Source: Candidatus Melainabacteria bacterium
GTDB taxonomy: Bacteria > Cyanobacteriota > Vampirovibrionia > 2-02-FULL-35-15
Assembly (NCBI GenBank): GCA_016193285.1
Contig: JACPSL010000002.1
Span: forward strand, 1 to 64,000
Direction of reading: 5' to 3'
DNA: 64,000 nucleotides
Both the position numbers and the translations under genes were made by a program. Below are positions 5,116-51,858 of this stretch, piece by piece (position 1 is the first letter of the stretch; every line of letters begins with the position of its first letter). The notes under the pieces were generated by a model. It was not told where the DNA came from. It saw only the letters and a program-made list of their open reading frames with translations, and ran no database searches.

Positions 5116-5137
5116 TAGAGGAAAGATACTTTCAAAA

Positions 5138-8729: not shown

Positions 8730-8794
8730 CTTATCCTGCTTTCCAGCAGGACACAGTAAGACACCACAAACTACTATCTATATTGTTCTAACCC

Positions 8795-9208: not shown

Positions 9209-12425
<3,217 letters not shown>

Positions 12426-12429
12426 AGCC

Positions 12430-12792: not shown

Positions 12793-12822
12793 CTGCTTAT
12801 ACTGTCAAATCTTTAATTAATC

Positions 12823-33928: not shown

Positions 33929-34288
33929 CTATAGTTCAATATCTAAATGTAAAGCCATCCCTTTTTTTACACTGCTAAAGTCTTGTTCATTTAGAATGCC
34001 TATTTTTTTAATAAAATTATTTTTGCTTACTGTATAAACATGAGAACAAATTGCTGCACTTGGTTTATTTAGACCACTTTGTTTTGTTGGTTTAAGATAG
34101 ATGTAAATCTCATCGTATTGCTCTACCTTTGTAGATGTAGGAACAACTGTTATTGTGTCTAGTAAAGTACACCCCTCGTTGCTTTGAACAACTATTGAAG
34201 GTCTTGCAGTTTTGCCAAGCTCACCTCTGCGGGATGGCTCATAATTAACTAGCCATACTTCACCTTTTTTTATTTCTTTGTTATCCAA
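33929..34288 (-). CDS. MazF/PemK-family type II toxin (mRNA interferase)
   Basis: KGEVWLVNYEPSRRGELGKTARPSIVVQSN…VVPTST… matches the PemK/MazF fold pattern. It overlaps the upstream antitoxin gene by 8 bp. Confidence 0.7.
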   Translation of the reverse strand: MDNKEIKKGEVWLVNYEPSRRGELGKTARPSIVVQSNEGCTLLDTITVVPTSTKVEQYDEIYIYLKPTKQSGLNKPSAAICSHVYTVSKNNFIKKIGILNEQDFSSVKKGMALHLDIEL

Positions 34289-36067: not shown

Positions 36068-36482
36068 TTGACACCTCAGATCTTGCTACTGCTGTACTTT
36101 TTAAAACAGGTGCCCATGGCTGGCTTGAATTAAAAAGTCCAAAAGGATTTATTATCGGTGTGTAATTATACTGAACATTTACAGTAATGACATCTCCTAC
36201 TTTTTTTACTATTCCAGGAGATGGTGTAATAGTTAAAGTAAATTTTGCAATATCTGGCAATAGAGAATTAGCTCCTGAAGCATCAATAACATTTTGCTGT
36301 GTATAAGATGATGTAACCGATGCATACCTTACTGCAGATCTTGCAATTTGACTTAAACTATTTGATATATAAAACACACTGCCAAATTCATAAATAAAAA
36401 GAACTATCCCAAGTAATATTGGAATAACTAGTGCTGTTTCTGCCATTACACTTCCTTTAAAAGATCTAAATAAAAATTTCAT
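36060..36482 (-). CDS. TadE-like protein
   Basis: N-terminus …SVMAETALVIPILLGIVLFIYEFGSVFY…ARSAVRYA is the TadE-like pattern. It overlaps tadG by 8 bp. Confidence 0.55.
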   Translation of the reverse strand: MKFLFRSFKGSVMAETALVIPILLGIVLFIYEFGSVFYISNSLSQIARSAVRYASVTSSYTQQNVIDASGANSLLPDIAKFTLTITPSPGIVKKVGDVITVNVQYNYTPIINPFGLFNSSQPWAPVLKSTAVARSEVSSA

Positions 36483-36569
36483 AATTTAAATTTATAACCT
36501 CGTTCTACCTTTATTTTATTAAAAAGGCAAGGTTTACAAAAAATCTAATGATACCCCTACATGATAGCC

Positions 36570-37445
36570 CTAATAATAATAATAAGAGCGTTCATCTCCT
36601 AAAATTATTTCTATTGCATTTTCATTTTCATTTGCTGAAATTATTGCCTGAGTCTGTGAAATATCTTGTGCCCCTTCTGGCTTTTGAATTAGATCACCAT
36701 AAATATCTTCTAAATTAACCCCACTAGTTGCAGCTAACTTATCTTCTCCAAATGGCCTTAACACTAAGTGTAATTGGCCAACCTCACTAGCTAGTGCTAT
36801 TTTTTCTGCATCGTTTGAGCCAAGTGCAAGGGTTACTTGTGCAACTATTTTAGCTTGAGGTTCTGCAATAGAATTTATATCTAGAATTTTATCTCCTACT
36901 GCCAAGACTAAAATATTTTGTAAAATTGTTTTTGAAAATGTTTGTTGTTCATTACTTTTTAAAATTGAAACAATGTCAACACGATCACCTGGATTAATAA
37001 ATCCACCAACTCCAACTACTTCATTTACACGGATTGTTATTGCTCTTAGATCCTTTGGAATTACAACAGGCAAGCCACCACTAGCACCTTGACCAACAAG
37101 TCTGGTCTCAGTTACTACTTCATCAGCTTGTAATGTTGCTTTTACTATACGGTCTTTAACAGATGAAATTGAACTTGGATAATCTTTTGGAACTGCTTGT
37201 ACAGGAAATTGTTTAATTGCTAAATCGCTTTCTTGTAATTTAGTACCTGCTAGAATTTGTTTACCTGCTACAACAACTGGTTTTGTAACTGAGAGTGCTT
37301 TTACCTTTTCTTGTGTCTTGCTTAAATATTGCCAAACACCAGTTGCAGCAATTAATCCCAGGAACATTGCAAGTGAGGCCATGACCACAAGTGAATTAAT
37401 TTTGTTTTTGGTTTTTGGTGACAGGGGTGAAGGATTTATTGCCAT
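36570..37445 (-). CDS. cpaB: Flp pilus assembly protein CpaB/RcpC
   Basis: An N-terminal TM segment, an SAF-like domain (VVVAGKQILAGTKLQESDL) and the …IPKDLRAITIRVNEVVGVGGFINPGDRVDIV… beta-clip region. Confidence 0.7.
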   Translation of the reverse strand: MAINPSPLSPKTKNKINSLVVMASLAMFLGLIAATGVWQYLSKTQEKVKALSVTKPVVVAGKQILAGTKLQESDLAIKQFPVQAVPKDYPSSISSVKDRIVKATLQADEVVTETRLVGQGASGGLPVVIPKDLRAITIRVNEVVGVGGFINPGDRVDIVSILKSNEQQTFSKTILQNILVLAVGDKILDINSIAEPQAKIVAQVTLALGSNDAEKIALASEVGQLHLVLRPFGEDKLAATSGVNLEDIYGDLIQKPEGAQDISQTQAIISANENENAIEIILGDERSYYYY

Positions 37446-37933
37446 AGTTTTGAAAAAATTTCATCATTGATTCCAAATGTTATATATAAAATTGTACCCA
37501 GTGCAATAGCAACTCCATATGGCACTTTTTGTTTTTTATCTACAACTGGTAACATTTGTCCAGTTGTTATCAGAAACTTAAAATGACCTGAATTAAATAT
37601 TATCCAAACTAGTCCTAATAATAATCCACAAAATGCACTGTAGAAAAAAATAAAGATTACATCTTTAACTCCAACAATAGAGCCAATTACAGCAAGAAGC
37701 TTAACATCACCAGCACCCATCCCGCCTTTTAAGTAAGGAATTATCAAAAGTAAGATCCCAACAGTAAAGCCAAGTAAACAATTTACAATCCCTTGAAGTT
37801 TAAATGAAAAAATGTTTATTAAAAAAATAAAAATAAAAATACCAAAAATAAGCCAATTAGGAATCTTTCTATACTTCCAGTCAAAAAAACCACCTAAAAC
37901 AGATATTATTAAAAGTAATATTTCCTTACTCAT
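37436..37933 (-). CDS. cpaA: A24-family prepilin peptidase (CpaA/TadV)
   Basis: A small polytopic membrane protein with GGFFDWKYRKIPNWL and GAGDVKLLAVIGS motifs. Confidence 0.7.
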   Translation of the reverse strand: MSKEILLLIISVLGGFFDWKYRKIPNWLIFGIFIFIFLINIFSFKLQGIVNCLLGFTVGILLLIIPYLKGGMGAGDVKLLAVIGSIVGVKDVIFIFFYSAFCGLLLGLVWIIFNSGHFKFLITTGQMLPVVDKKQKVPYGVAIALGTILYITFGINDEIFSKLWQ

Positions 37934-37987
37934 AAAAAAAACATAGCCTTATCAGGCAGGCTATGTCAAATTTTCTTTAACTATTAT

Positions 37988-38191
37988 TTATTGAGTATTT
38001 AGTTCAGTATTAACATTAGTAAAAATATTCGAGATTGAGCCTCTCATTGAGATTATTATTGATGCAACACCAGCAGCAACAATTCCTAAGAGCAGTGCAT
38101 ATTCTGTCATTGATGCACCTTCTTCATCACGAATAAATCTAATGACTATGTCCATAAAGTTATTCCCAATCCTAAGCAATTGATCTAGCAA
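37988..38191 (-). CDS. flp: Flp/Fap-family pilin, copy 1
   Basis: …DEEGASMTEYALLLGIVAAGV… is the Flp motif (EEGAT.IEYGLI). Confidence 0.75.
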   Translation of the reverse strand: MLDQLLRIGNNFMDIVIRFIRDEEGASMTEYALLLGIVAAGVASIIISMRGSISNIFTNVNTELNTQ

Positions 38192-38250
38192 TTAGCTATT
38201 GATAAAACATATCCAAGAACTCATCTAACTCAATAATGCTACTTTACTGC

Positions 38251-38415
38251 TTACTTAGTAAGTTCAGTATTAGCATTTGTAAAAATGGTCTTGATGGAGC
38301 CTCTCATTGTGACTATTACTGATGCAACACCAACAGCAATAAGTCCTAAGAGCAGTGCATATTCTGCCATTGATGCACCTTCTTCATCACGAATGAATTT
38401 AATGATTGTATCCAT
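38251..38415 (-). CDS. flp: Flp/Fap-family pilin, copy 2 (54 aa, not in the ORF track)
   Basis: Hand translation gives MDTIIKFIRDEEGASMAEYALLLGLIAVGVASVIVTMRGSIKTIFTNANTELTK. A GGAGG RBS lies 7 nt upstream. Confidence 0.7.
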   Translation of the reverse strand: MDTIIKFIRDEEGASMAEYALLLGLIAVGVASVIVTMRGSIKTIFTNANTELTK

Positions 38416-38627: not shown

Positions 38628-40757
38628 TTGAATTTCTTTGAAGCAATAAAAAACCATTTAAGACTGGGCCTGTTAATTGTATTTATTGTACCTGCTATGG
38701 CTTGGATAATTGCACTGTCAATTACTCCAATCTTTGAGAGTAGAGCAAGGCTCCTAATAGAAGTAAAAGACTTAGGATTTGAAGGACAACAAGCTCAACC
38801 ATTTAGAACAATTGCAAGAGCAAGTGACCCTATACAAACTCAGATTGAAATTCTAAGATCAGCCACAATCTTAGATAAAGTTATCAGGCAATTTAATATG
38901 AGATATGAAAGTGGTAGTAGAAAAGGACAGTACTTAAGTTATTTAAACTTAAATGCTAATTTTGCTGTTTCTGCTGATAGAAATGTTGACGTAGTTGAAC
39001 TAAAGTTTAAACACTCTGATCCTAATTATGCAAAACACATCTTACAAGCTATTACTGACAGTTACATAGAAAAAACAATTGAATTAAAAGCAAGTGATAC
39101 TGCAAGTGCAATTAGATTTTTAAAAAAAGAAAGAAATAAAGCAGAAAGAGAAGCTCTTGAAGCTAGTAAACGTTTAAGAGAATTTGAACATAAAAGTAAA
39201 ACAATTAGTTTAGAAAGTAATCAAGAAATAGTAAAAAGCCTATATTCACTTAGAAGCATTAAACTTACAGCAGAAAGTGAACATGTTAAAGCAAAAACAG
39301 CCTCGGAACAAATTACTAAACAACTTATGTCCAGTCTAAGTGATTCACTTTTAAACATTACTGTTAGCGAAGATCCTTTTCTTACTGCACTTAGAAAAGA
39401 CTTGTATGAAAAGGAAACACAGTTAGTAAGATTACAAACCAAAGTAAAATCTGGTCATTATCAACTTGAAGAAATAAAACAACAAATTGAAGGAGATAAA
39501 AAACTTATAGAAGAAAGGGTTAAAGAGTTAGTTGGCAAGCAAGTAAATTTAAAATCCTTTTCATTTTCTAATGATCCGGTTCGTGCAGAATTAACTAGAA
39601 ACCTACTTCAAACCAAGACAGCTGAACTAGCTATTAAAGAACAACTAAAGGTAATTGATGAAGCACTTGATGAAGTACTAAAAAAACTTGAAAAATTACC
39701 AAATGAAAAATATATTTATACTCAGTTATTAAGACAAAATGACATTGCTGAAAAACGTCTTGAAGAAATTGAAAAGAAACTAATTGAATCAAGAATGAAG
39801 GGTGTGATTGCTTCTCATATTACTAATATAAGACTTATTGATCCTCCATCATTAGCAACTTCCCCAATACATCCTAATATTCCATTTGCTTTATTTTCAA
39901 GTTTTATTTTTGGACTTATTCTTGCACTTATTGTAGTTTACATTGTTGAATATTTTGATGATGTTATTAAAGGCGTTGACACTCTTCCAAGTGAAATGGG
40001 TTGCCCGTTCTTAGGCCAATTGCCTCAAGTCCATATTGGTGACTTACCAATTGTTTATCAAGAACCAAGATCAGAATACACAGAATCTATTCATGCACTT
40101 AGAACAAATCTTTCATTCTTATCTCTTTCAGGAAATAAAAAACTTTTACTTATTACAAGCCCAAGCGTACATGAAGGAAAGTCTACCGTGTCATTAAATT
40201 TAGCAATTACTTATGCACAAAGCGGGAAGAGAGTTTTATTAATTGATAGTGACATTAGGAATCCATCATTGTACAAGTACCTGGCAAGGCCAAAAGATAC
40301 AGTTGGTATAAGTAATACCTTAATTAATGAGATTGACTTTTATGATGTAGTACAAAAAAGTATTTTAGGAATAATTGGATTTGATTATTTACCAAGCGGT
40401 GAAATCCCACCAAATCCAATACAGCTCCTTGAATCAGATAGAATGAGAGAACTGCTTGAAACTGCACAACATATTTATGACCTAGTAATACTAGACACAC
40501 CACCTTTAGGATTATTTTCAGATGCACTACTACTAGCACGTTATGTAGATGTTGTTGGACTGGTGTCAAGATATAACAAGACTTCAAGAAAAGAATTAAT
40601 GGCAGCAATTGATTTACTAAAGAAATCAAATGTAACTGCAATCGGGGTTGTACTTAATTCAGTTCCATCCGGCGCAACTGGAACATACGGATACGGGTAT
40701 GGTTATTATGGCTATGGTGAAAGTGAAAGGTATGCAAAAGGTGAATCAGCAGCATAA
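38628..40757 (+). CDS. wzc: polysaccharide co-polymerase / BY-kinase (Wzc-like tyrosine autokinase)
   Basis: An N-terminal Wzz-like domain with two TM segments and a long coiled coil. The C-terminal P-loop has Walker A SPSVHEGKST, A' LLIDSD and B DLVILDTPP. The Tyr cluster is GTYGYGYGYYGYGESERY. It uses a TTG start with a GGGAG RBS. Confidence 0.85.
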   Translation: MNFFEAIKNHLRLGLLIVFIVPAMAWIIALSITPIFESRARLLIEVKDLGFEGQQAQPFRTIARASDPIQTQIEILRSATILDKVIRQFNMRYESGSRKGQYLSYLNLNANFAVSADRNVDVVELKFKHSDPNYAKHILQAITDSYIEKTIELKASDTASAIRFLKKERNKAEREALEASKRLREFEHKSKTISLESNQEIVKSLYSLRSIKLTAESEHVKAKTASEQITKQLMSSLSDSLLNITVSEDPFLTALRKDLYEKETQLVRLQTKVKSGHYQLEEIKQQIEGDKKLIEERVKELVGKQVNLKSFSFSNDPVRAELTRNLLQTKTAELAIKEQLKVIDEALDEVLKKLEKLPNEKYIYTQLLRQNDIAEKRLEEIEKKLIESRMKGVIASHITNIRLIDPPSLATSPIHPNIPFALFSSFIFGLILALIVVYIVEYFDDVIKGVDTLPSEMGCPFLGQLPQVHIGDLPIVYQEPRSEYTESIHALRTNLSFLSLSGNKKLLLITSPSVHEGKSTVSLNLAITYAQSGKRVLLIDSDIRNPSLYKYLARPKDTVGISNTLINEIDFYDVVQKSILGIIGFDYLPSGEIPPNPIQLLESDRMRELLETAQHIYDLVILDTPPLGLFSDALLLARYVDVVGLVSRYNKTSRKELMAAIDLLKKSNVTAIGVVLNSVPSGATGTYGYGYGYYGYGESERYAKGESAA

Positions 40758-40814
40758 GGGGAAAGAGACGGCGAGACGGCGAGACGGGGAACTGGGGAAA
40801 GGGGGAAAGAACAC
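40758..40814 (+). repeat. purine-rich tract with tandem GAGACGGC ×2.5 between wzc and the wza-like gene
   Basis: Seen directly (gggaaagagacggcgagacggcgagacggggaactggggaaagggggaaaga). It is unusual in AT-rich DNA. Confidence 0.4.
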
Positions 40815-42017
40815 ATGAAAAATAAAAGTAAACTAAAAATATTTCTAATGCTTATACTTATAATAGTATTATTACTTAACCAAATTGTCTTTGCAGAAGA
40901 AAATAAAGACATAAATAAAGTTAAACTTGAAGCAGTTCTTACTCCTATGTATGTAATTGGTCCTGGAGATGAGTTAACAATCATTGATAGAACGTTAAGA
41001 GAAGTATTTGGACAGGTTGAACAATATACTTTAAAGGTTTCAACAGATGGTTATATTTCTATACCATTACCAGATGGTAAACAAGAAAATCTTTTAGCTG
41101 CAGGTTATACACTTAATGAACTTTCAAAAGAAGTTAGAGAATTATTTGGAAGAACTTTGAAAAATCCACTTGTATTTGTTCAGATTAGTAGATATAGACC
41201 ACTAAACATATATATTGGAGGTGAGATTGTTAAACCAGGTGTTTACAAAATTGAACCTTCAGCAAGTACTGTAGGCGTATCAATAAGTGAAGCTATTCAA
41301 TTAGCTGGTGGCTTAAAACCAAGAGCTAATATAAAAGCTTTAATAATTACAAGAGGATCAAATGCAGAAAAGAAAAGTATTAACTTACATGCATACTTAT
41401 CAGGGGAAGATCCTACTCAGGATATTAATTTACAACCTGGAGACACAATATATGCAAACCCTGCTGAGAACCAAGCAGATCAAGCACAAAGCCATGTCAA
41501 ACTTCTTGGAAAACTTGCATATCAAGATGTACCAATTAGCATAACAGGAGAAGTAAAAACTTCAGGCAATTATAATCTAACCAACGATGCAAGCTTTTTT
41601 GATGCAATAGGCAAGGCAGGAGGTCTAACAAATGTTGGTTCCCTGAAAAAAGTAAAAGTTTCAAGATATGATGATGACGGTGTTTACAGAATATTTAAAG
41701 TAAACATAAATGATTTACTTCTTAAAGGAGCTACATTTGATCAAATTGCACTTAGACCAAACGATACTATTGAAATTGAAGCTTCAAAAGTGAAACAAAC
41801 TAAAAGTTTCTTTAGACAGGTTGGTGTTAATTTAATCCCAATTGTTGCTGGTGCTGCTAGTGCAAGCTTTGGACAATTTGTTGTTCAAGACAACTTATTT
41901 AATAGAAGTTCCAGGCTTCGTGGTTCAACAAAAGCTAGTGGTTCAGGTGGTAACTTTACTTCACCAATAACAATTATAGGCAATACCGAAAGAATTATTA
42001 ATGAAAACAGTAAATAA
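40815..42017 (+). CDS. polysaccharide export protein (Wza-like; Poly_export + SLBB domains)
   Basis: A signal peptide, then VIGPGDELTII (Poly_export motif) and repeated soluble-ligand-binding beta-grasp-like segments. It is next to wzc. Confidence 0.7.
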   Translation: MKNKSKLKIFLMLILIIVLLLNQIVFAEENKDINKVKLEAVLTPMYVIGPGDELTIIDRTLREVFGQVEQYTLKVSTDGYISIPLPDGKQENLLAAGYTLNELSKEVRELFGRTLKNPLVFVQISRYRPLNIYIGGEIVKPGVYKIEPSASTVGVSISEAIQLAGGLKPRANIKALIITRGSNAEKKSINLHAYLSGEDPTQDINLQPGDTIYANPAENQADQAQSHVKLLGKLAYQDVPISITGEVKTSGNYNLTNDASFFDAIGKAGGLTNVGSLKKVKVSRYDDDGVYRIFKVNINDLLLKGATFDQIALRPNDTIEIEASKVKQTKSFFRQVGVNLIPIVAGAASASFGQFVVQDNLFNRSSRLRGSTKASGSGGNFTSPITIIGNTERIINENSK

Positions 42018-42762
42018 AATTCTAGTTTTAATGCTTATAGCTTTTATTTGCTTTTATAGGATTCCTGTTTGTGCTCAAAATGTAAGTGAAATTAATTTAG
42101 ATATTTACAAAATAAATTTAGATTCCTTAGATAAATTTAATTTAATAAAAAAAGAAGAGATAATAGATCTTGTCTTATTAAATGATGTTTTTACAGAAGG
42201 AAAAAGATTTGCAATGTCATCAAATCTTCAGCTTACAACAAACAAACTTTACTTAAAAGATGGTCAAGAAATTCTTATTTCAGCAACATCTCCAGTAATT
42301 ACTAGTATCCATCCACCACATGCAAATAATAACTCTTCTGGAATAGCAAGAGCATTACTAGGACTATCAGTTGCAAGTACTCCATTAACATTTGGTACAA
42401 GCATAGGTATAAGCTTTTTAATCAGTGGACTACTTTCTGCATACCAGAATGGAATATCTGATTTTATCTGGGGAGGATTAAACGGGGGAGGATTTTCATT
42501 TGTAGAACATATATTTCGAAAACAACCGGACATATTTTTAACTAGTGGAACAAAAATCCCATTTGTTTTAAATGAAGATATAAAAATCAGTAAAGGAATA
42601 GAAAAAGAAAATATTGAATATATTGATATCGGTAAAGAAGAAGCTATTAAAAAAATCAATAAATTACTAGAATGGGGAGACTTAACGGGAGCTCTGGAAC
42701 TATCTGTAAAAACAGGCCAAACAGAAATATACAATGAAATCATAAAAAAGATATCATTATAG
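42001..42762 (+). CDS. hypothetical secreted protein (253 aa), translationally coupled to the wza-like gene
   Basis: A signal-like N-terminus and a 17-bp overlap with the upstream gene. Confidence 0.4.
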   Translation: MKTVNKILVLMLIAFICFYRIPVCAQNVSEINLDIYKINLDSLDKFNLIKKEEIIDLVLLNDVFTEGKRFAMSSNLQLTTNKLYLKDGQEILISATSPVITSIHPPHANNNSSGIARALLGLSVASTPLTFGTSIGISFLISGLLSAYQNGISDFIWGGLNGGGFSFVEHIFRKQPDIFLTSGTKIPFVLNEDIKISKGIEKENIEYIDIGKEEAIKKINKLLEWGDLTGALELSVKTGQTEIYNEIIKKISL

Positions 42763-42779
42763 ATTTAAAATATATCTTA

Positions 42780-45047
42780 ATGTCTACCACTAATAAAGCT
42801 TGGAAGTTATTAATTGATTTAATTTTTAATAACAAAAATAATATAGCTATAGAAGATACTAAAGATTTTTTAACACTTGTAAAAAAACATTCACTTGAAA
42901 ATTATACAAACTTTTTAAGAGGTATAAAACTTCGTGAGACTTTATTAAATAATCCTTGGGAATGGGATTTTTTAAAAGTACTTTCAAATGCTTTACAAGA
43001 AGACATTCAAGTTCTTTTATTAAAAGGTGCATGTTCAAGATTAATAGGAATTTACAAATACCCTGCTTTGCGTGAAAGCCAAGATCTGGATATTTTTATT
43101 TACAGTCCATGCAAAACATTTGATTTTAAACAATTTTTAGAAAGTTTAGCAAATCAAAAAATAATATCCTTAAGTAATGACTGGAAAGCACAGTTAAAAA
43201 GGCTTGGTAATGTACTTGCTCTTTACAATGATCATCAAATTGATATTCATTTTAAATTATTTTCTCCTTTAGGGACTGTATCTAAAACTACTAAACAAAA
43301 CAAGAAACTTGAAGGTGAAATTATTCAAAGAGCAAAAAGCCATGAAAAATTATCAAATATTAAAATAATGTCAAATGAAGATTTTTGGCTTTATAATATC
43401 TTTCAATTTATAAAAGATTTTCCTTTCTCAAAAATTCAACTAATTCTTGATTCTTATTTAATTATTAAAGGAAATAAAACAAGTCTTAAGTTACTAAGTG
43501 AACATGCCATAAAAACAAAACAAAGCTTTTTATTTAAAATTAGTTTATTTTTTCTGTATCAATGCTGCAATCATTCGAATAGTGACAATCTTAAAATAAA
43601 TCCTTTAGAAAAATATTGTTTTAATATCGAGAACATTATAAATGCAAGTAAATTTAGTGTAAAAAGCAGGTTACTAGATGCTCTTTCAAAAGGAATTTTT
43701 CTAGCAAATGGCAATATATTTTTTTCAATATTTAACTCATTACATTTTTTCATAGTAAACAATTTTTTATTAAGTACAATAGACGAAAATCCTTTTACAA
43801 TTAATTCGTTTCTAAACTTTTTTACTAAACTGTTTTATGTTTTAAGTAAAACCAAGAACTCAATAAAATCTTTTAAATCTTTTCAAGAAAATACAGAAAT
43901 CAAGATTTATTCAGAAGAAAAAAAATTAATTTCTGTCCAACTAGATAACCTTAAAATTACCTTTAATGTACCTGGTGAGTTCTATGACAAACTAAAATAT
44001 ATTTGGTCAGGTTTTATAAGTAATGATCATCTAGATAAAGTAATTAATATTGAGAAAGTAACTAATAATTCAAAGCCAGAAAATACTTATGAAGTAGCTT
44101 TTAACAACAATTATTTTTATATGAAACTATCAGATAATGTCCATGGAAAGACAGATTTAGAAGGATTAGGAAAACTTTTTGCAAACACTTTTTGGGATGT
44201 ACGTACTTTTGCTTTATGTTTTTTTAGAGCTTTAAGCTTTACAAAAAATAATTTGCTACTAGTACATTCCGGTGCTATAAGAATTAACAATGGAACATTT
44301 CTTTTTCCTGGAGGATCAAGTTGTGGCAAAACGACATTTTTTAATCTCTTAGTTAAAAATGGCGCCTGTGGTATTAATGATGATACAGTACTTTTAAAAG
44401 AAGAAAATGATACCTGGTATGTCTATCCAACACCATTTATGAGTAAAAACCAAGAACCAGTTATATCTAACAAGAGTAGACTTTCAGGAATAATAGATTT
44501 AATTAAAGTAGCTGGAGGATATGAAATTACTTCTTTAGACATAAATTACTTGTTAGCAATATTACTAAACAATTCAATTGCAGACTTTACTATAGATGAT
44601 GGAGGAATTATAAGGGCTAAAACTACAGAAAAAATAATAAACCTTTCTAAACAATTAACTCATTTAGCACAAATTAAGTTTTCATTAGAAGATGATAAAA
44701 GATTAATAAGCTTAATACGTGAGTGGATAAATAACCCAAATAAAAATATTAAATTTGGATCAAGCTTATTACCTCTTGTTCAGTTACGTGGAGATAGTAT
44801 GATGCCTTCATTTAAGAATGGTGACTTACTTCTTGTAGAAGAGGCTTACCCAAACAATATAAAAATAAATGATATGGTTTGCTTTACTAATGAATTTAAT
44901 TTTCCTCAAGTACACAGAACAAAATATTTAATAAGACATAAAAACAATATTGTTTTAATTACAAAAGGTGATAACAGGATCTTTTACGATAATCCAATTT
45001 CAGTTAAACATGATAAAAAAATACTTAAAGTAATCTCTAAACTGTAA
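42780..45047 (+). CDS. tri-domain protein: PF14907-like nucleotidyltransferase (N), HPr-kinase C-terminal-like P-loop domain (middle), S26/S24 signal-peptidase-like domain (C)
   Basis: N-terminus RESQDLDIFIYSPC…IDIHFKLF (R.s.DlDllv…lH). Middle HSGAIRINNGTFLFPGGSSCGKTTFFNLLVKNGACGINDDTVLL (HprK_C-like HG…G.SG.GKS…DD). C-terminus VQLRGDSMMPSFKNGDLLLVEE (SPase I-like GDSM.P…GD…V). Confidence 0.6.
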   Translation: MSTTNKAWKLLIDLIFNNKNNIAIEDTKDFLTLVKKHSLENYTNFLRGIKLRETLLNNPWEWDFLKVLSNALQEDIQVLLLKGACSRLIGIYKYPALRESQDLDIFIYSPCKTFDFKQFLESLANQKIISLSNDWKAQLKRLGNVLALYNDHQIDIHFKLFSPLGTVSKTTKQNKKLEGEIIQRAKSHEKLSNIKIMSNEDFWLYNIFQFIKDFPFSKIQLILDSYLIIKGNKTSLKLLSEHAIKTKQSFLFKISLFFLYQCCNHSNSDNLKINPLEKYCFNIENIINASKFSVKSRLLDALSKGIFLANGNIFFSIFNSLHFFIVNNFLLSTIDENPFTINSFLNFFTKLFYVLSKTKNSIKSFKSFQENTEIKIYSEEKKLISVQLDNLKITFNVPGEFYDKLKYIWSGFISNDHLDKVINIEKVTNNSKPENTYEVAFNNNYFYMKLSDNVHGKTDLEGLGKLFANTFWDVRTFALCFFRALSFTKNNLLLVHSGAIRINNGTFLFPGGSSCGKTTFFNLLVKNGACGINDDTVLLKEENDTWYVYPTPFMSKNQEPVISNKSRLSGIIDLIKVAGGYEITSLDINYLLAILLNNSIADFTIDDGGIIRAKTTEKIINLSKQLTHLAQIKFSLEDDKRLISLIREWINNPNKNIKFGSSLLPLVQLRGDSMMPSFKNGDLLLVEEAYPNNIKINDMVCFTNEFNFPQVHRTKYLIRHKNNIVLITKGDNRIFYDNPISVKHDKKILKVISKL

Positions 45048-45211
45048 AAAGTCTACTGTTTTCTAACTACCAGTACCAGCTCTATAAACATAAGAAGATT
45101 TTTCTTTTTCTAGATTCTCTGCAATATTTAATAATTTTTCTTGTTCTTTTGTAATAAAATAAAAATCTTTACTCTCCATTAATTTCTCCTTTTTTAACAT
45201 TATTATATACA

Positions 45212-46195
45212 ATGATCCATGTTATGAACATCTGTAATCTCACAGAAGATAGATTTGATGGCTATTTTAAGTTTTTGGATCGAGCTTATCCAAATAGGAA
45301 TTTAAAAGAACTATTTAAAAATGAAATATTAAAAAAAGCAAATGTAATAATTTCAGTAAATAAAAATAGTCAAATAGTTGGTCATCTTACTTGTTATCCT
45401 TGTGAATTTTATTTAAATAATGTAATCACTAGTGGTAATTTTTACTGTAATTTTCTAGTTCTTCAAGAACATAGAAATAAAGGCATTGGAAGCTCCTTAG
45501 TTAAAAAAGCTACTACAGAGCATAAACCTTGGTTTGCCTTTGGTGTAAATAATTTCTCTAAAAGTTTAGCTTATAAGATTGGCAAAATAATTGGTTCTTC
45601 ACAGAAATTTGTATGGTTTAGGAACTCTTATATTCCAATAAAAATTTTTACAAACCCACTAAGAAAGTATTCTATTATTAGTGACACAAAAGAACTTACT
45701 GACTCAATTTATACAGGCAGAAACTATTTTACAAATCTTAAATCAATAAATAACTGGCAAGATTATTTTTGGGGAAATAATACATTGCAATTTTCTAGAC
45801 CATATAAATTCTTAGAGAGAAAGATTTTTAGTAAAATTAATAAACATACTTTTTATTACTTTGAGAATTCCAGTCCACAAGTATATTTTACAGTTAAGAA
45901 GTCATACATAAGAGGATTAAATGTATTAGAAATTGTTGATTACAAAGTCCCAAATCATACTAGTGAACTCTTTATCGCAATAATTAATGCTGCTAAATAT
46001 TTAACTAAAAAACTAAAATTTGATGGTGTAATTTTTGAAAGTTCACATCAATACTTTGATAGAATACTAAGTTTTAACAATTTCATAAAAATTGGGAAAC
46101 CAAGGCTTATAATATCAAATATAGAAACTAATATTTCACAAGAAAAAATAAAGAATAGAGATTTTCTTTACATAACACCAATAGACAGCCCTTGA
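45212..46195 (+). CDS. GNAT-family acetyltransferase domain protein with a C-terminal extension
   Basis: The acetyl-CoA motif A-like is VLQEHRNKGIGSSLVKKA. Confidence 0.5.
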   Translation: MIHVMNICNLTEDRFDGYFKFLDRAYPNRNLKELFKNEILKKANVIISVNKNSQIVGHLTCYPCEFYLNNVITSGNFYCNFLVLQEHRNKGIGSSLVKKATTEHKPWFAFGVNNFSKSLAYKIGKIIGSSQKFVWFRNSYIPIKIFTNPLRKYSIISDTKELTDSIYTGRNYFTNLKSINNWQDYFWGNNTLQFSRPYKFLERKIFSKINKHTFYYFENSSPQVYFTVKKSYIRGLNVLEIVDYKVPNHTSELFIAIINAAKYLTKKLKFDGVIFESSHQYFDRILSFNNFIKIGKPRLIISNIETNISQEKIKNRDFLYITPIDSP

Positions 46196-46202
46196 TGAAA
46201 AA

Positions 46203-47138
46203 ATGGAAAAAAATTATTCTCATAAAATATCTATCATTATTCCTTATTACAATCCTATTCTTAAATATTTTGATAAAGCAATAGAAAGCATTTTATCTCA
46301 GTCATATACAAACTTAGAAGCAATAATTGTAAATGACGGGAGCAGTCTTGATTATAAGAATTATTTAATTAATAAAATTAATTCACTAAATGATAAAAGA
46401 TTTAGTATCATCCATCTTGATAAAAATTATGGGGTCTCATTTGCAAAAAATAAAGGGATTGAATCAGCAAGTGGAGAAATTATAACTTTTTTAGATACTG
46501 ATGACATTCATCTACCATGGTTTTATAAAGACATTGTTGATACTTTTAATGAAAACCCAGATTGTTTAATTTTGCATACTACTAATATTTATTATGTAGA
46601 TCTCCTTGGAGTGATTAAGTTGTTTGTTACTCCTAACGAAGGCTGGGATCAAAAATGTATAAATTACAAACAGGTAGTTAAGCCTCGCTTAGCTCTTAAA
46701 AAAGAGGTTTTTAAAGATATATTGTTTGATACAAATTTATTTTATGCAGAAGATACTGATTTATGTCTTCAAATATCTGAAAACAATAAGCTTCAAAACA
46801 GTACTTTACTACTTAAAAGAAGTAGCTACTTATATAGAATGCACCTTTCCAATAAAAGGCTTACACATAATCTAAAACTAGCTTTAGAAGGCAGAGAAAA
46901 AGTTAAAAGAAAATATGAAGGGAAAGATTCTACTAGTGGTAGTTTTGTTCAAACTATTACACTTAAAAAAACACTAGTTCCATTTTTTGGAATAGACTAT
47001 AGATATCTTAGAGTTTTAATTAATTTTAAGTATAATCTATACAAAAAAATTAGAAATGAGTTCACTCATTACTTAAATGTAATTCAAGATAAAAATATAA
47101 AATCACATGCTGTTAATATCTATAAAAAAATATTCTAA
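46203..47138 (+). CDS. family-2 glycosyltransferase
   Basis: ISIIIPYYNP … VNDGSSLDY … LDTDDIHLP (DxD) are the GT-A/GT2 hallmarks. Confidence 0.8.
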   Translation: MEKNYSHKISIIIPYYNPILKYFDKAIESILSQSYTNLEAIIVNDGSSLDYKNYLINKINSLNDKRFSIIHLDKNYGVSFAKNKGIESASGEIITFLDTDDIHLPWFYKDIVDTFNENPDCLILHTTNIYYVDLLGVIKLFVTPNEGWDQKCINYKQVVKPRLALKKEVFKDILFDTNLFYAEDTDLCLQISENNKLQNSTLLLKRSSYLYRMHLSNKRLTHNLKLALEGREKVKRKYEGKDSTSGSFVQTITLKKTLVPFFGIDYRYLRVLINFKYNLYKKIRNEFTHYLNVIQDKNIKSHAVNIYKKIF

Positions 47139-47150
47139 ACAAATAAGAGC

Positions 47151-48278
47151 ATGAATCAAAATCATTCACCTAAAATTAGCACTATAATTCCTTATTACAA
47201 TCCTCCTTTTCATTATTTTACAGAAGCAGTTGAAAGCGTTTTAGCCCAGTCGCATAAAAACTGGGAAGTAATTATTTTAAACGATGGGAGTAAAGTTGAA
47301 AATAAAAAGCTTTTAGAAAATTATATTGAAAGTCTTAATGACAGCAGGTTTAGCATTACTCATTTTGAAAAAAATTACGGGATATCATACACAAGAAACA
47401 AAGGCGTAGAAGCTGCTCAGGGAGATATAGTCCTATTCCTGGACGCTGATGATTTATTTTTACCATGGTATTTTGAAAAAGTTATAGAATCATTTAGCAG
47501 AAACAATAACTGTTTGATTGTAGCATTTAATAATTTAATACTCCTTTCAGCTAGCAGGTTGAAGAAAGTATATATAAAAGATACCTACTTAAAATTCTTA
47601 AATAAAAAAGAAATGTTTAACAAGCTTCCTTATTTAATTAAAAGTGGAGATGTATTTCTTCCTCCTAGAATCACATTTAAAAAGAAAGCATTTGAAATCT
47701 TAAGTTTTGATTCTATGTTTCACTCTTCTGATGATATTGATCTTAATTTTCAAATAATGTGTTCAGATGAGCTGCTTGATAAAACAATAGTAGCCCCTAT
47801 TCCAGGCTATGTATACAGATTTTACCTGTCAACAGACAGGCTTACACACAAAACAGTTTTATTAAACAAGGACATAAGAAATTTAAGAGTCAAATATAAA
47901 AAAAAGAATATACCAAGAATCTTAAAAATGATCAAGCATTTAGAGTCAAACCACAATGAATGGAGGTTTAATGATTTGTTAAATTGTTATTTTGCAACTG
48001 GCTCTTTAATAAAATGTTTTAAATATTCACTTCAGAACTTTCATACTCTAAAAGGAAAAATTAAGAGTTTACTAATTTTATTTCAAACAATTTTAATTGT
48101 AAGAGTATTAAACCCATTAACTGGAATTAGCCCACGATTACTTGAGCTTATATTTAAAAAGGAATTTTTGAATTACAATAAAATTCTTAAACAAGAATAT
48201 CTAAATTATTTAGAGAATATTTCACTAGCTACTACAGAAAGGTATTATGCAAACAGACTATTTAAAAGAATTTTCTAA
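47151..48278 (+). CDS. family-2 glycosyltransferase (paralog of the previous gene)
   Basis: STIIPYYNPP … LNDGSKVEN … LDADDLFLP. The first 120 aa closely match the preceding GT2. Confidence 0.8.
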   Translation: MNQNHSPKISTIIPYYNPPFHYFTEAVESVLAQSHKNWEVIILNDGSKVENKKLLENYIESLNDSRFSITHFEKNYGISYTRNKGVEAAQGDIVLFLDADDLFLPWYFEKVIESFSRNNNCLIVAFNNLILLSASRLKKVYIKDTYLKFLNKKEMFNKLPYLIKSGDVFLPPRITFKKKAFEILSFDSMFHSSDDIDLNFQIMCSDELLDKTIVAPIPGYVYRFYLSTDRLTHKTVLLNKDIRNLRVKYKKKNIPRILKMIKHLESNHNEWRFNDLLNCYFATGSLIKCFKYSLQNFHTLKGKIKSLLILFQTILIVRVLNPLTGISPRLLELIFKKEFLNYNKILKQEYLNYLENISLATTERYYANRLFKRIF

Positions 48279-49971
48279 TAAAGAATTACTGCCGCCAATT
48301 TTTGTTGTAGGTTGTGCAAGATCTGGAACTACATTATTAGCAAACACTATTGGGAAGCACTCAAACATTTACAATGTTAAAGAAGAAACACATTTGTTTT
48401 ATAATCTCAAGAATCAAGCTATTCTTGACAAACTTGAACGAACTAATGACATTGAAACTCTTACCTTAGTGATATTGACAAGGATGTTTTATCTTGTTAC
48501 TCCTGAAGAATTCATGCAAAAAAAAATATATCTAGGTGAGAAATTCCCTGAAATAATTAAAATATTTAAGGACATAAGCAGCTTAGAAGAATTTAAAACA
48601 GTATCTACAAGGTTTGATATTTTTGATTTATGTGCAACATTTTTAACCTTAAAAGAAAATAAAATAAGATGGGTAGAAAAAACACCTTTTCAGATTTTTA
48701 ATGTTCCTTTTATTTTAGAAATTTATCCAAATGCAAAGTTTATTGAAATTTATAGGGATCCTAGAGCTGTTTATCACTCCTGGAATAATGTTAATCACTC
48801 GTATTTTAAAAAAGGCAAACCCATACAATGTTCTTCTATTTGGAGAAGGGCTATTACAAATGGACAAAAACTTAAGCAGTTCATTCCTAAACAATACTAT
48901 CAAATAAAATATGAAGACTTAGTTAACTTACCTGAGAAAGAACTTATAGAACTTTGTGATTTTTTAGGTGAAAAATTTGAGCCAGCAATGTTAAATGTAG
49001 AAGTAAGAAACACCTTTTTTGGTGATATAAAAGAAAAAAGTGGGTTTTCAAAAATACCAGTTAATAGATGGGAAAAAGGGCTAACAGGAATTGAAAAAAT
49101 TTTTATAGATCTTAGAACAAAAGAATTTAGAAAGAATTTAAATTATCCTGATTCAGGTACGAAAATTTCAATTACTGCTATATTACCTTTTACTTTTTAC
49201 TTACTTACTAGAGGCATAGTAGAAATAGAACAAATAAAATCCTTGTCAATTAGAAAATTTAGTAAAAGGCTCTTATTTATTAAGACTATTAAAAATAATA
49301 TTATAGATTTTAGTCACAAAATAAGAAGCCCAGTAAAAATAAAAACTTATTTGAAATTACACCCTATTAAAATGCTTCAAGTAGGCTCTGGTTCTAACAT
49401 TCTTCCAGGTTGGCTTAATACAGATAGTAATCCATGTTCAAATAACATTGTATTTCTTGACAGCACTAAAAAATTCCCATTTAAGAATAATACTTTTGAT
49501 TATATTTTTAGTGAACATCATATTGAACACTTAAGTTATTTTGAAGGCTTACATATGCTTAAAGAATGTTACCGTATTTTAAAACCAAAAGGTAAAATCC
49601 GGATTGCTACACCTGATTTAAAAGTATTTATTGATTTATATAATCCACAAAAAAGTAATATTCAAAAACGTTATATTAATTTTATTTCTAATAACTACAA
49701 CTCAAGCATAGGAATTCAAAAAGATATAATTGTAATAAATAGTATATTTAAAAACTTTGGACATAAATTTGTCTATGATTTCGAAATACTAAAGATGACT
49801 TTAGAAAAAGTAGGATTTATTAATGTAACTTTTTTTAAGCCACAAGAAAGCAATGATGATTTTTTAAAAGGAATTGAATATCATGGCAAATATTACAAAA
49901 CACTAAACTTAAAGTATGGAGAAGACTTTAACTGCTTTGAAACTATGGTACTAGAAGCTTTACGTTTATAA
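48247..49971 (+). CDS. bifunctional sulfotransferase (N) / class-I SAM methyltransferase (C) fusion
   Basis: The N-terminal 5'-PSB motif is GCARSGTTLL, and the 3'-PB-like motif is RDPRAVYHSW (Sulfotransfer_3-like). The C-terminal MTase motif I is LQVGSGSNILPGW, followed by …LKPKGKIRIATPD…. Confidence 0.7.
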   Translation: MQTDYLKEFSNKELLPPIFVVGCARSGTTLLANTIGKHSNIYNVKEETHLFYNLKNQAILDKLERTNDIETLTLVILTRMFYLVTPEEFMQKKIYLGEKFPEIIKIFKDISSLEEFKTVSTRFDIFDLCATFLTLKENKIRWVEKTPFQIFNVPFILEIYPNAKFIEIYRDPRAVYHSWNNVNHSYFKKGKPIQCSSIWRRAITNGQKLKQFIPKQYYQIKYEDLVNLPEKELIELCDFLGEKFEPAMLNVEVRNTFFGDIKEKSGFSKIPVNRWEKGLTGIEKIFIDLRTKEFRKNLNYPDSGTKISITAILPFTFYLLTRGIVEIEQIKSLSIRKFSKRLLFIKTIKNNIIDFSHKIRSPVKIKTYLKLHPIKMLQVGSGSNILPGWLNTDSNPCSNNIVFLDSTKKFPFKNNTFDYIFSEHHIEHLSYFEGLHMLKECYRILKPKGKIRIATPDLKVFIDLYNPQKSNIQKRYINFISNNYNSSIGIQKDIIVINSIFKNFGHKFVYDFEILKMTLEKVGFINVTFFKPQESNDDFLKGIEYHGKYYKTLNLKYGEDFNCFETMVLEALRL

Positions 49972-50049: not shown

Positions 50050-51858
50050 TCATCTAATACGAACTCTAAATACAGTTCCACCAGCTCTTACTAAATCATT
50101 GTCTTTAAGTTCAACACCATCATCCGGTAAAAGTAGTTCATCATTTAAGAAAGTACCGTTGCTTGAATTTGAATCTCTTATCAAAAGAAATTCTCCTTGC
50201 CTGTATATTTCAAAATGATATCTGCTAACAGATAGTGAGCCTGGGATTTGCACATGGGAATCTTTTGACTCTGCTCTTCCAAAAGTACGACTCTCTCCTT
50301 CTTGTGGTTCAAAGTCCATCTCTTTACCAGAAACTTCTTCTTTGAGTGTAAATCTAACTGGCGGTTTTCCATAAGCTCCTGCATTTATATCTTTTGGTCC
50401 TTCAACAGGTGGTATAGATTCTCCAGGTGGTACATCTAATGGAGCAACAATGCCTGAATGTAATCCAGGAGAAGAACTGAATGATTGACTAATGGGAGAT
50501 GGATCTCCACTTCCTGGATCAAGTCTCTCTACCCTGGAGTATGGGTTTACTCGTGATCCTGATTGCGGTGAATCAGGAAGTGACATACTTGTGCCTATCT
50601 CACTGAGATCCTCAAGAAAATTAAGTCTTATTTGAGGATCATTAACAACTCCACTTTGCAAAGAATCGGCCTTTCTGAAATACGAAAGAAATATATTTAG
50701 TGCTCTATCTGCTAATTGAGCGTTTTCAAATTCACCGTATGCAGGAGCATCATCAAAATTAATCACAGGTATTTCCCTTTCATCAAAATCTCCTGTTGCA
50801 TATTGTCCTAGCCTAAGCATTAGTCTTACCTTTCTAGGATCATTTGCAAAAGCAAGATTTACTGAGTGCTTTTGATAACCACCCCAAATTTGATGATGTG
50901 GATTACTAAGAAATCTTGTCCCAGAAGGATGATATGTCCCATCTCCAATTGAAGGAGTTATTCTGTAAAAATCTTTTAACTCTTCCCCAGTAAGTCTTAA
51001 ATAAAAATCTGACTCACATAAACCTTGTAGTGTTACAGGCAAAGATTTACCTAGGATATCTCCTTGTGATGGAGTATGCACAAGAAATGAAGGACCTGAA
51101 CATGAAGCAAGTTGATATAGCATAGCTTGATCGTAATCAGCACCTATTCCACCCCAGATAGAAGTCACATTTAAGTCTCGTAGTCTTTCACTATCAATAA
51201 AAGGACTAGCTGCCACGGGGTTATTTTGTCCATCAGTAAATCCCATAAATAAACTTCTTGGTGGATCAGATTCTTTATACTCTTGAATTCCTCTTACTTT
51301 ATCACATGCTAACTTTACTAAGCTTTGAATATTAGTGCCGCTATTAGTTTGCAATGCTCCAATAGTATCAATCAGTGTGTTAAGATCTGTTCGATATTCA
51401 TATGGCCTTCCTTGAGGATCGTATGCAACTTTAGCATTACGATCAAAAACCAAAAGTGTAATTTTTGACTCTGGTGGAAATCCAATATTTCGCAAGCTTT
51501 GAATTACTTTTTTAAAATGTTCTAGTTTTGAAGTTTTATCAGAAGGTGTAATGTGGTTAATCATACTTCTAGATTTATCAAGCCCAATTACAATATGCGG
51601 GACTTTGTAATATTTTGGTGTTGCTAATTGAGGAGGACTTGATTCTTCTACTAAAGATATCTTCTGACCCTCTCCGCCAGCGCCAATTCCAACAGGTACT
51701 TGACAAATAGGTTTTTTCCCTGAAGGTGCTGTACCTTGCTCAGCAATAACTATTATTGGTGTTTCACCATGAAATTTTTTATTACCAACTTCTCCTCCTT
51801 GAATCCTATGTGGCAGTGCTATTGCTACAGCACTGACATTTGCTCCAGGTACTAACAT
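50050..51858 (-). CDS. vWA-domain / FHA-domain protein
   Basis: The vWA MIDAS motifs are DKSRS, SGTNI and TDGQNN in the N-terminal half. The C-terminal FHA domain is …FGRAESKDSHVQIPGSLSVSRYHFEIYRQGEFLLIRDSNSSNGTFLND…. Confidence 0.7.
   Translation of the reverse strand: MLVPGANVSAVAIALPHRIQGGEVGNKKFHGETPIIVIAEQGTAPSGKKPICQVPVGIGAGGEGQKISLVEESSPPQLATPKYYKVPHIVIGLDKSRSMINHITPSDKTSKLEHFKKVIQSLRNIGFPPESKITLLVFDRNAKVAYDPQGRPYEYRTDLNTLIDTIGALQTNSGTNIQSLVKLACDKVRGIQEYKESDPPRSLFMGFTDGQNNPVAASPFIDSERLRDLNVTSIWGGIGADYDQAMLYQLASCSGPSFLVHTPSQGDILGKSLPVTLQGLCESDFYLRLTGEELKDFYRITPSIGDGTYHPSGTRFLSNPHHQIWGGYQKHSVNLAFANDPRKVRLMLRLGQYATGDFDEREIPVINFDDAPAYGEFENAQLADRALNIFLSYFRKADSLQSGVVNDPQIRLNFLEDLSEIGTSMSLPDSPQSGSRVNPYSRVERLDPGSGDPSPISQSFSSSPGLHSGIVAPLDVPPGESIPPVEGPKDINAGAYGKPPVRFTLKEEVSGKEMDFEPQEGESRTFGRAESKDSHVQIPGSLSVSRYHFEIYRQGEFLLIRDSNSSNGTFLNDELLLPDDGVELKDNDLVRAGGTVFRVRIR

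Follow-up and report, generated by a model that had tools for sequence, protein, structure and literature searches.

What is made by a gene row in which an enzyme of three joined domains stands among glycan-modifying genes, behind genes for polysaccharide export? The question is raised by a 64-kb stretch of DNA (hereafter the window, meaning the whole stretch analyzed) from a metagenome-assembled genome (MAG) of Candidatus Melainabacteria. Open reading frame (ORF) calls delineate a tight plus-strand row at 38628-49971, which runs from a wzc-like gene to a sulfotransferase-methyltransferase gene and contains a 755-aa protein (42780-45047, +) composed of a PF14907 nucleotidyltransferase, an HprK/PEPCK-fold kinase and an S26B peptidase. 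An initial annotation, made from the letters of the sequence, had hesitated between a sulfated or methylated glycan, a chain terminator and a modified peptide as the product. We found a precursor-like gene adjoining the tri-domain gene in every related locus, and the balance therefore shifts toward a modified peptide, though not a lasso peptide; the sulfotransferase-methyltransferase may still be a chain terminator. We tentatively propose that the core of the cassette is a short ribosomal peptide together with a three-in-one maturation enzyme, set amid glycan enzymes behind the polysaccharide export genes.

The peptide gene (45063-45200, -) lies on the opposite strand, convergent with and adjacent to the tri-domain gene. 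It encodes 45 aa from the ATG at 45200, but the likelier start is the ATG at 45179 (38 aa; MESKDFYFITKEQEKLLNIAENLEKEKSSYVYRAGTGS), which is preceded by an AAGGAG ribosome-binding site. In the window, 15 bp separate its stop codon from that of the tri-domain gene, and 12-45 bp separate its start from that of the following acetyltransferase gene of the GNAT family. The same arrangement was seen in 11 of 11 related loci with downstream DNA (the window, L001, L003, L004, L005, L006, which equals L007, L008, L009, L010, L011 and L015), and a 69-aa gene has been called at the same place on the P0002 contig, for which a gene call and no DNA was at hand. A six-frame motif scan of all loci returned exactly one peptide ORF per tri-domain locus and none in L012, L013 or L014. 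The eleven peptides align without gaps from FY, over a helix-like stretch of 20 residues rich in Lys and Glu, up to the motif S-x-Y-x-[YF], behind which comes a short tail rich in Gly, Ser and Ala; the block FY-x20-S-x-Y is kept at fixed spacing. The Tyr of S-x-Y is retained in 10 of the 11 peptides. Ser is found within the final two residues of ten peptides and Thr in those of the eleventh (p=5e-4 for Ser, by shuffling within the tail). Nucleotide identities of 0.52/0.72/0.47 at the three codon positions show the pattern of a translated gene, and most copies are preceded by a Shine-Dalgarno sequence. The window copy had been called only by Logan, unnamed, and is missing from the NCBI record; the initial annotation, which suggested that a short precursor be sought nearby, had itself overlooked it, together with a 253-aa protein gene (42001-42762). 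None of the other small ORFs on the plus strand between 37.9 and 50.1 kb was conserved, and a promoter and terminator scan around the peptide gene gave no excess over shuffle expectation. Since the gene lies antisense inside the operon (region 45047-45224), its promoter must lie inside the GNAT ORF, and read-through of the operon would yield antisense RNA. We consider it rather probable that this peptide is the substrate of the 755-aa enzyme.

The domain assignment of that enzyme could be examined in detail. With 100% identity, the protein matches an NCBI entry that comes from a Candidatus Melainabacteria MAG and bears the name 'nucleotidyltransferase family protein'. The ORFs described in the initial annotation (755, 327, 311, 375 and 574 aa) were all present, their translations contained every motif it quoted (RESQDLDIFIY, IDIHF, GGSSCGKTT, NDD, GDSMMPS, RSGTT and RDPRAVYHSW), and the division of the 755-aa protein into three domains was borne out by domain scans, by the matches of its relatives and by invariant motifs. 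In an alignment of nine full-length homologues with 44-48% identity, which was used for all catalytic residues, the active sites of all three domains were invariant. The PF14907 core spans residues 61-232 (42960-43475, +; 45.4 bits against a gathering cut-off of 31.2), and the whole N-terminal module extends to about residue 365. G83, D102-L-D104, D155 and H157 were retained in this module and correspond to a Pol-beta-type nucleotidyltransferase motif. Foldseek matched the N-terminal domain to the nucleotidyltransferase MenT1 with probability 1.0.

The middle domain (residues ~385-650; 43932-44729, +) was less readily placed. Pfam and NCBIfam models confirmed the PF14907, S24/S26, GNAT, glycosyltransferase, sulfotransferase and methyltransferase assignments of the initial annotation, but the proposed HPr-kinase-like domain passed no curated model; its best match, to TIGR04352, scored 15.3 bits where the cut-off is 200 (E 0.008), and a Pfam scan of the 755-aa protein gave no Hpr_kinase_C match. 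A sequence-profile search of the domain against the PDB was uninformative, being dominated by Walker-A matches to ABC ATPases, and a weak precomputed match to PF27840 (ScmC) was seen in some homologues. The relatives of the domain were more telling. Among 31 sequences, namely the 30 nearest stand-alone relatives and the domain of the window itself, sub-threshold matches were obtained to ScmC (27/31), HprK_rel_A (23/31), HprK_rel_B (19/31), HprK (13/31) and PEPCK (11/31). H496, the P-loop at 511-519 (S514, G516, K517 and T519) and the pair D534-D535 were invariant, in the order and spacing seen in HprK. The middle domain thus has the HprK/PEPCK fold, and 'HprK-like' is therefore correct for fold and motif; since its scores lie far below the cut-offs, it is a member of no curated HprK-related family.

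The C-terminal domain (residues ~660-755; 44757-45044, +) matched Peptidase_S24 (PF00717) over residues 664-748 with 25.7 bits against a cut-off of 23.3. It also matched the archaeal-type signal peptidase I model TIGR02228 with 45.9 bits (E 5e-12), just under the cut-off of 51.85, and the human signal peptidase subunit SEC11A (E 4.4e-10), which assigns it to the S26B Ser-His type found in SipW and the archaeal enzymes. S673, H712, D731 and D737 were invariant and form the Ser-His-Asp-Asp set of this type. The likeness to S26B signal peptidases (SEC11A/C, archaeal SPase I, SipW) thus extends over sequence (E 4e-10), fold and catalytic set, whereas the window domain has no transmembrane anchor and is fused to ATP-using domains. 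In the whole 755-aa protein, no signal peptide was found, and the single borderline hydrophobic stretch (residues 313-331, Kyte-Doolittle 1.61) lies far upstream of the peptidase. Without an anchor and placed after an ATP-binding domain, the peptidase is therefore cytoplasmic and no secretory signal peptidase. The cytoplasmic S26-family protease that matures nickel superoxide dismutase is a precedent for the removal of a propeptide by such an enzyme, and a weak match to TIGR02754 occurred in relatives. A first AlphaFold model of the whole protein, built from the 9-sequence alignment, had a mean pLDDT (predicted local distance difference test) of 59.7, falling below 50 in the kinase domain, and Foldseek searches with it supported the nucleotidyltransferase and peptidase folds only. 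It was replaced by a second model covering residues 371-755, built from 20 sequences, with a pLDDT of 90.8.

Both fusions in the row, this one and that of the sulfotransferase with the methyltransferase, were unfamiliar to the initial annotation and are indeed undescribed, which agrees with their distribution. A profile search of 1.84 billion cluster representatives returned 4 full-length tri-domain representatives (50% identity clusters), all Melainabacteria-like, and fragments. Below this set, scores dropped from E 1e-180 to about 1e-14, a tier made up of stand-alone kinase-like proteins of ~265 aa and two-domain kinase-S26B fusions of ~400 aa. Word-based searches gave 17 tri-domain clusters when grouped at 90% identity. 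When one genome was scanned for each GTDB species, a Rifle Melainabacteria MAG held the only locus, and a metagenome pattern scan found two loci. The sulfotransferase-methyltransferase fusion has ~8 full-length homologues, all from the Melainabacteria-like lineage. The cassette is rare and restricted to Melainabacteria. In the literature on PF14907, TIGR04249 and TIGR04352, essentially nothing relevant was found except the lasso papers.

In two of the related loci, the ORF of the precursor-like peptide runs on into an intein-like Hint domain (L001:12291-12863, - and L009:3510-4082, -). The junctions read ...GSP|CC or ...KSS|CC and are followed by a domain of 140 aa, which matched Pfam Hint_2 at 22 bits, below the cut-off, and solved inteins at E 4e-4 to 2e-3. 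The Cys-Cys pair followed by an intein-like domain with an S-P-E-H (TxxH-type) block resembles the Hedgehog and bacterial intein-like (BIL) autoprocessing domains. Splicing inteins end in His-Asn, which both of these Hint domains lack. In the absence of this terminal pair and of a C-extein, only N-terminal cleavage or transfer is therefore expected. The Hint domain starts exactly where the free peptides end, so autocleavage would expose the same Ser or Ser-Pro C-terminus. We know of no other Hint fusion to a precursor of this kind.

A conserved peptide next to a kinase, a nucleotidyltransferase and a peptidase recalls the peptides that are made by the ribosome and modified after translation (RiPPs). 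The link that the initial annotation drew to kinase-containing lasso-peptide clusters is well founded in the literature (PMC8498205, PMC4289311). In those clusters, HPr-kinase homologues phosphorylate the C-terminal Ser of the precursor (PMC8498205). In the pseudomycoidin system, the kinase PsmK requires the pair D158/D159, and the PF14907-type protein PsmN requires D134/D136 and is needed for the addition of one or two hexoses to the phosphate, the literature leaving unresolved whether PsmN is itself a glycosyltransferase (PMC6993621). Several lasso clusters carry a nucleotidyltransferase fused to the B2 leader protease, and some carry a sulfotransferase (PMC6993621, PMC8498205, PMC4289311). 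The DD pair of the window kinase corresponds to D158/D159 of PsmK, and the DxD of the nucleotidyltransferase to D134/D136 of PsmN. The cassette thus shares with paeninodin (PadeK) and pseudomycoidin (PsmK and PsmN) an HPr-kinase-like enzyme with a DD pair, a PF14907 protein with DxD and a short precursor, the lasso precursors being phosphorylated on the C-terminal Ser and then hexosylated. The differences are equally clear. Lasso clusters have a cyclase and the B1 and B2 proteins (PqqD-like and transglutaminase-type protease), of which the window cassette has none. Its protease is a Ser-His peptidase of the S26B type, all three activities reside in one polypeptide, its partners are glycosyltransferases, a GNAT and a sulfotransferase-methyltransferase fusion beside polysaccharide export genes, and its host is a melainabacterium. 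Neither an Asn-synthetase-like lasso cyclase nor a B protease was among the Pfam and NCBIfam matches of the scanned window ORFs or in the gene tables of the related loci, where the initial annotation had suggested looking for them. A lasso cluster was therefore rejected.

The nearest relatives of the middle domain lead to a second kind of peptide cluster. ScmC of the SynChlorMet (Scm) cassettes (TIGR04249) and the HprK-related kinases A and B (TIGR04352, TIGR04355) belong to the same clade as the middle domain and its nearest relatives. To our knowledge, none of these families has an experimentally known function. Scm cassettes contain radical S-adenosylmethionine (SAM)/SPASM enzymes, PqqD and a small peptide, as does the surrounding of P0164, a two-domain kinase-S26B protein. 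On one side, P0164 has a radical-SAM/SPASM gene, PqqD, a 38-aa Cys-rich peptide and a second radical-SAM gene; on the other, it has two ABC exporter genes and a stand-alone PF14907 gene. The P0164 locus is a textbook example of an Scm-type RiPP cluster. A Neptunitalea locus has an HprK_rel_A-like protein (P0167, E 7e-17) after a small ORF and before a PF14907 gene. From these two loci, the three activities fused in the window thus occur as neighbors in peptide-modifying clusters. The window cassette differs from the curated families by its scores, which are far below their cut-offs, and by having no radical-SAM or PqqD gene. In L012 (7431-15389), a RiPP cluster runs in the order radical-SAM/SPASM, PqqD, a 38-aa Cys-rich peptide (MRKGYEKPEMMILTQNELEEMLLANASGCGYVCMVSGR), radical-SAM, the HprK-like and S26B fusion, a pair of ABC exporter genes, a PF14907 nucleotidyltransferase gene and genes for PP-binding proteins; it adjoins AgrB/LytTR and conjugation genes.

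The genes that follow the peptide encode glycan-type and decorating enzymes. The GNAT-like acetyltransferase (327 aa; 45212-46195, +) matched Acetyltransf_9 (PF13527) at 40.5 bits and had no match in the PDB. Its homologues stand directly after the peptide gene in L001, L003, L006 and L010, and one gene later in L008. In the loci with this arrangement (the window included), the protein has ~330 aa; in L004, L005, L011 and L015, the place is taken by a 190-197-aa protein of unassigned family and an HTTM membrane protein (L004:4228-5705, L005:4506-5980, L011:14939-16419 and L015:4309-5789). Two family 2 glycosyltransferases (GT2s) follow the GNAT in the window, one of 311 aa (46203-47138, +; Glycos_transf_2, 89.7 bits) and one of 375 aa (47151-48278, +; 101.9 bits) with a C-terminal hydrophobic segment at residues 301-327. 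The closest solved relatives of the latter are chondroitin synthase, GalT1, TagF and heparosan synthase. In each of the nine loci whose sequence extends far enough, the tri-domain gene has one to three GT2 genes beside it. The row closes with the 574-aa fusion (48247-49971, +) of a sulfotransferase (residues 17-264; Sulfotransfer_3, 105 bits) to a class-I SAM methyltransferase (~372-574; Methyltransf_11, 31.7 bits), both by Pfam. Every contig of sufficient reach carries a sulfotransferase or this fusion (the window, the P0002 contig, L004, L006, L011 and L015); in L011, in L015 and on the P0002 contig, it is the fusion itself that accompanies the tri-domain gene. Sulfatase genes were seen inside or at the edge of the cassette in L001 (16056-17540, -) and L014 (1-590, -), which suggests turnover or editing of sulfate groups.

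The nearest solved relative of the sulfotransferase domain is that of CurM (1.5e-12), followed by the tyrosylprotein sulfotransferases TPST1/2 (about 2e-9). Because it is related to both, the acceptor of the sulfate may be either the nearly invariant Tyr of the peptide or a sugar. RaxX and RaxST form a tyrosine-sulfated RiPP system. The cassette resembles that system and TPST in its TPST-related sulfotransferase and in a peptide Tyr that lies, within S-x-Y-x-[YF], after acidic and basic residues, but differs in that CurM-type enzymes score better. Another comparison is offered by WbdD of the E. coli O9a O-antigen, a kinase-methyltransferase that terminates chains in an ABC-2-dependent glycan pathway. 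The sulfotransferase-methyltransferase fusion would likewise be a bifunctional enzyme adding an anionic group and a methyl, and it has ABC-2 genes for company in L014 and perhaps also in L011 and L015; unlike WbdD, it would use sulfate from 3'-phosphoadenosine-5'-phosphosulfate (PAPS) rather than phosphate from ATP, and the first domains are unrelated in sequence. In the sister lineage, synechan (xss) and other sulfated exopolysaccharides of cyanobacteria have PF13469 sulfotransferases beside glycosyltransferases and polysaccharide co-polymerase and outer-membrane export genes (PMC8205485). Wzx, Wzy and a priming glycosyltransferase are all encoded in the xss cluster, which lacks a kinase/nucleotidyltransferase/peptidase enzyme, a precursor peptide and a sulfotransferase-methyltransferase fusion.

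By analogy with these systems, the cassette would work most like a PsmK/PsmN tailoring pair joined to a leader peptidase, in a context of glycan synthesis and sulfation. The kinase domain would phosphorylate the Ser at or next to the C-terminus of the peptide, as PadeK and PsmK do. Like PsmN, the PF14907 domain might then add a sugar, or another group linked by a phosphodiester, to that phosphate. The cytoplasmic S26B domain would remove the Lys/Glu-rich N-terminal part as a leader, or trim the tail. The two GT2s could lengthen the sugar into a glycan, the sulfotransferase-methyltransferase could add sulfate and methyl to this glycan or to the nearly invariant Tyr, and the GNAT could acetylate it. 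The product may be exported through Wzc/Wza in the window and through an ABC-2 transporter in the relatives. We infer all of these steps, and those of the GT2s, the sulfotransferase-methyltransferase, the GNAT and export more weakly than those of the kinase, nucleotidyltransferase and peptidase. That the GT2s, the sulfotransferase-methyltransferase and the GNAT act on the same peptide-borne product seems to us somewhat less likely than not, and the whole coupled model, that of a RiPP-like cassette making a phosphorylated peptide product decorated with sugar and sulfate, is put forward tentatively.

Several observations weigh against it. In an operon whose other genes all read in one direction, the peptide gene is antisense in every case, an unusual arrangement for a RiPP cluster. 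No site fitting the classical -3/-1 rule of signal peptidases was evident near the conserved peptide motif, and in three peptides Pro stands directly before the nearly invariant Tyr. No leader-binding domain of the PqqD or RRE type was detected in the 755-aa protein (hhalign against the L012 PqqD protein gave a probability of 0.3). The nearest solved relatives of the GT2s are enzymes that extend polysaccharides and glycans, not peptide glycosyltransferases of the glycocin type, and Wza and Wzc normally serve long polysaccharides. L014 has no tri-domain gene, peptide or HTTM pair within ±10 kb. The mechanism, finally, would be one drawn from sequence and genomic context.

The strongest rival takes the row as an ordinary locus for a sulfated, methylated surface polysaccharide, to which the tri-domain enzyme and the peptide would be joined as a separate accessory module that merely accompanies it, with a regulatory role or as a RiPP system in its own right. 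We regard this as a real possibility, although a doubtful one. The glycan would then be lipid-linked, with its primer transferase encoded elsewhere; the sulfotransferase-methyltransferase would decorate it or cap it in the manner of WbdD, and Wzc/Wza or an ABC-2 transporter would export it. Such a locus would accord with the position of wzc and wza, which immediately precede it and share its orientation in the window, L001 and L006, and with the ABC-2 exporter components of L003, L004 and L014 and, in part, L006. It would also accord with GT2s that resemble polysaccharide glycosyltransferases, with a methyltransferase domain that is elsewhere fused to GT2s (P0193, P0194), and with PF13469 sulfotransferases being common in cyanobacterial exopolysaccharide clusters (PMC8205485). 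L014 (3944-12037; genome GCA_016196635.1) is syntenic with L011 and keeps three GT2s, ABC-2, a sulfotransferase and the sulfotransferase-methyltransferase fusion without the tri-domain gene or the peptide, so that the glycan module can occur with no peptide module at its side. The G+C content falls from ~32% to 26% across 42-50 kb. Wzc of the window shares 74-76% identity with its counterparts in L001 and L006, but the identities of the cassette proteins reach only 31-46%. The cassette therefore evolves much faster than its neighbors, and low G+C with fast divergence is seen in serotype-type glycan loci. However, the reverse association is strict, in that the tri-domain gene and the peptide are never found without adjacent GT2 genes (9/9 loci with flank), and the peptide gene lies inside the cluster, between the tri-domain gene and the GNAT or GT2 genes. 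As the initial annotation had remarked for the window, the machinery of lipid-linked synthesis is not in sight: among the scanned ORFs of the 64-kb window, Pfam showed no Wzx, Wzy, priming transferase or ABC-2 exporter, genes elsewhere in the genome being possible, and the related loci with DNA likewise have no priming phosphoglycosyl transferase, Wzx or Wzy. The exception is a Glycos_transf_4 (WecA/MraY-type) gene on the P0002 contig, ~1.3 kb beyond the cassette. Nor does an ordinary polysaccharide locus account for a conserved kinase-nucleotidyltransferase-peptidase fusion with intact active sites. If this rival is right, the row would be one more variable surface-polysaccharide locus with an unusual sulfating and methylating capping enzyme.

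Peptide and glycan could also be one product, a 'mini-proteoglycan' or phosphoglycan, with the peptide in place of undecaprenyl phosphate priming or anchoring a glycan that is sulfated and methylated. This seems unlikely. After phosphorylating the C-terminal Ser, the tri-domain enzyme would begin a sugar chain there through a phosphodiester link, the GT2s would extend it, Wzc/Wza or ABC-2 would secrete it, and in some species the Hint domain would generate or activate the peptide C-terminus. We judge it similarly improbable that the enzyme acts on a non-peptide substrate (a sugar, a lipid carrier or a polysaccharide end), with its peptidase being an autoprocessing or regulatory module like LexA and the small ORF an unrelated regulator or chaperone. 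The S24/S26 fold does include the self-cleaving LexA and UmuD, the role of PsmN as a glycosyltransferase is itself unresolved (PMC6993621), and the missing RRE domain would fit. But outside carbon metabolism, every characterized member of the HprK-like clade acts on Ser of a peptide or protein, the C-terminal domain has the Ser-His-Asp-Asp set of SEC11 and not the Ser-Lys dyad of LexA, relatives occur in bona fide RiPP clusters, and neither the conserved C-terminal Ser nor the Hint fusion would be explained. A toxin-antitoxin or defence module, in which a MenT/AbiEii-like nucleotidyltransferase toxin is countered by the small ORF as antidote, is highly improbable and has little support. It could appeal to the Foldseek match with MenT1 and to AbiEii and MazF genes elsewhere in the window. 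However, PADLOC gave zero matches for the tri-domain protein, the 253-aa protein and the GNAT, the tie to GT2s and sulfotransferases is strict, the active sites of the kinase and peptidase domains in the fusion are conserved, and antitoxins are not characterized by a conserved Tyr/Ser motif or a Hint fusion.

The export genes open the row. The Wzc-like polysaccharide co-polymerase and bacterial tyrosine kinase (38628-40757, +) has Wzz, GNVR and AAA_31 matches, a TIGR01007 match of 170 bits and a C-terminal Tyr cluster. The Wza-like outer-membrane polysaccharide export protein (40815-42017, +) has a Poly_export and two SLBB domains and is 58% identical to its counterparts in both L001 and L006. 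Between it and the tri-domain gene lies the 253-aa protein (42001-42762, +), a probably secreted protein with a signal-like hydrophobic segment at its N-terminus (residues 3-28). It had zero matches in Pfam, NCBIfam or PADLOC. A homologue with 49% identity stands at the same position in L006, and none in L001. Upstream of and divergent from wzc is a Tad/Flp pilus locus (35075-38415, -) with TadG-like, TadE, RcpC/CpaB and prepilin peptidase genes and two Flp pilin genes (37988-38191 and 38251-38415, ORFs of 54-67 aa); the order Tad, Wzc, Wza, 253-aa homologue and tri-domain gene in L006 equals that of the window. Downstream of the cassette are a VWA-FHA protein, Xth and PntAB. The VWA-FHA protein (602 aa; 50050-51858, -) directly follows the cassette and has a VWA domain, a Pro/Ser-rich linker and a C-terminal FHA domain; it is not conserved beside the cassette in other loci.

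Other parts of the window carry mobile and toxin genes. A mobile island occupies positions 1-8868 beside a tRNA-Pro (8795-8868) and contains PrimPol/AAA_25 (1140-3014), GmrSD (5138-6361, -), DNA methylase (6343-7515, -) and tyrosine integrase (7611-8729, -) genes. Three AAA_14/DUF4143 ATPase genes are dispersed in the window (9209-10426, 20593-21837 and 32548-33723, -), and L011 has a further copy (12292-13470, -), inserted so that it separates the tri-domain gene from the peptide gene. The AbiEii-type nucleotidyltransferase toxin gene lies at 27854-28540 (-) and the MazF toxin gene at 33929-34288 (-).

If the reading of a peptide matured by the tri-domain enzyme is true, the cassette would represent a new RiPP-like family in Melainabacteria, a non-photosynthetic sister group of Cyanobacteria that is essentially unexplored for natural products. 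It would provide a first functional context for PF14907, for the ScmC and HprK-related kinases and for cytoplasmic S26B peptidases, and would link the chemistry of peptide maturation to glycosylation, sulfation and export of the polysaccharide type. The Hint-fused precursors would suggest a new way of making a defined peptide C-terminus. With peptidase, kinase and nucleotidyltransferase in a single polypeptide and a candidate substrate of 38 aa, it would also be a compact system testable in E. coli.

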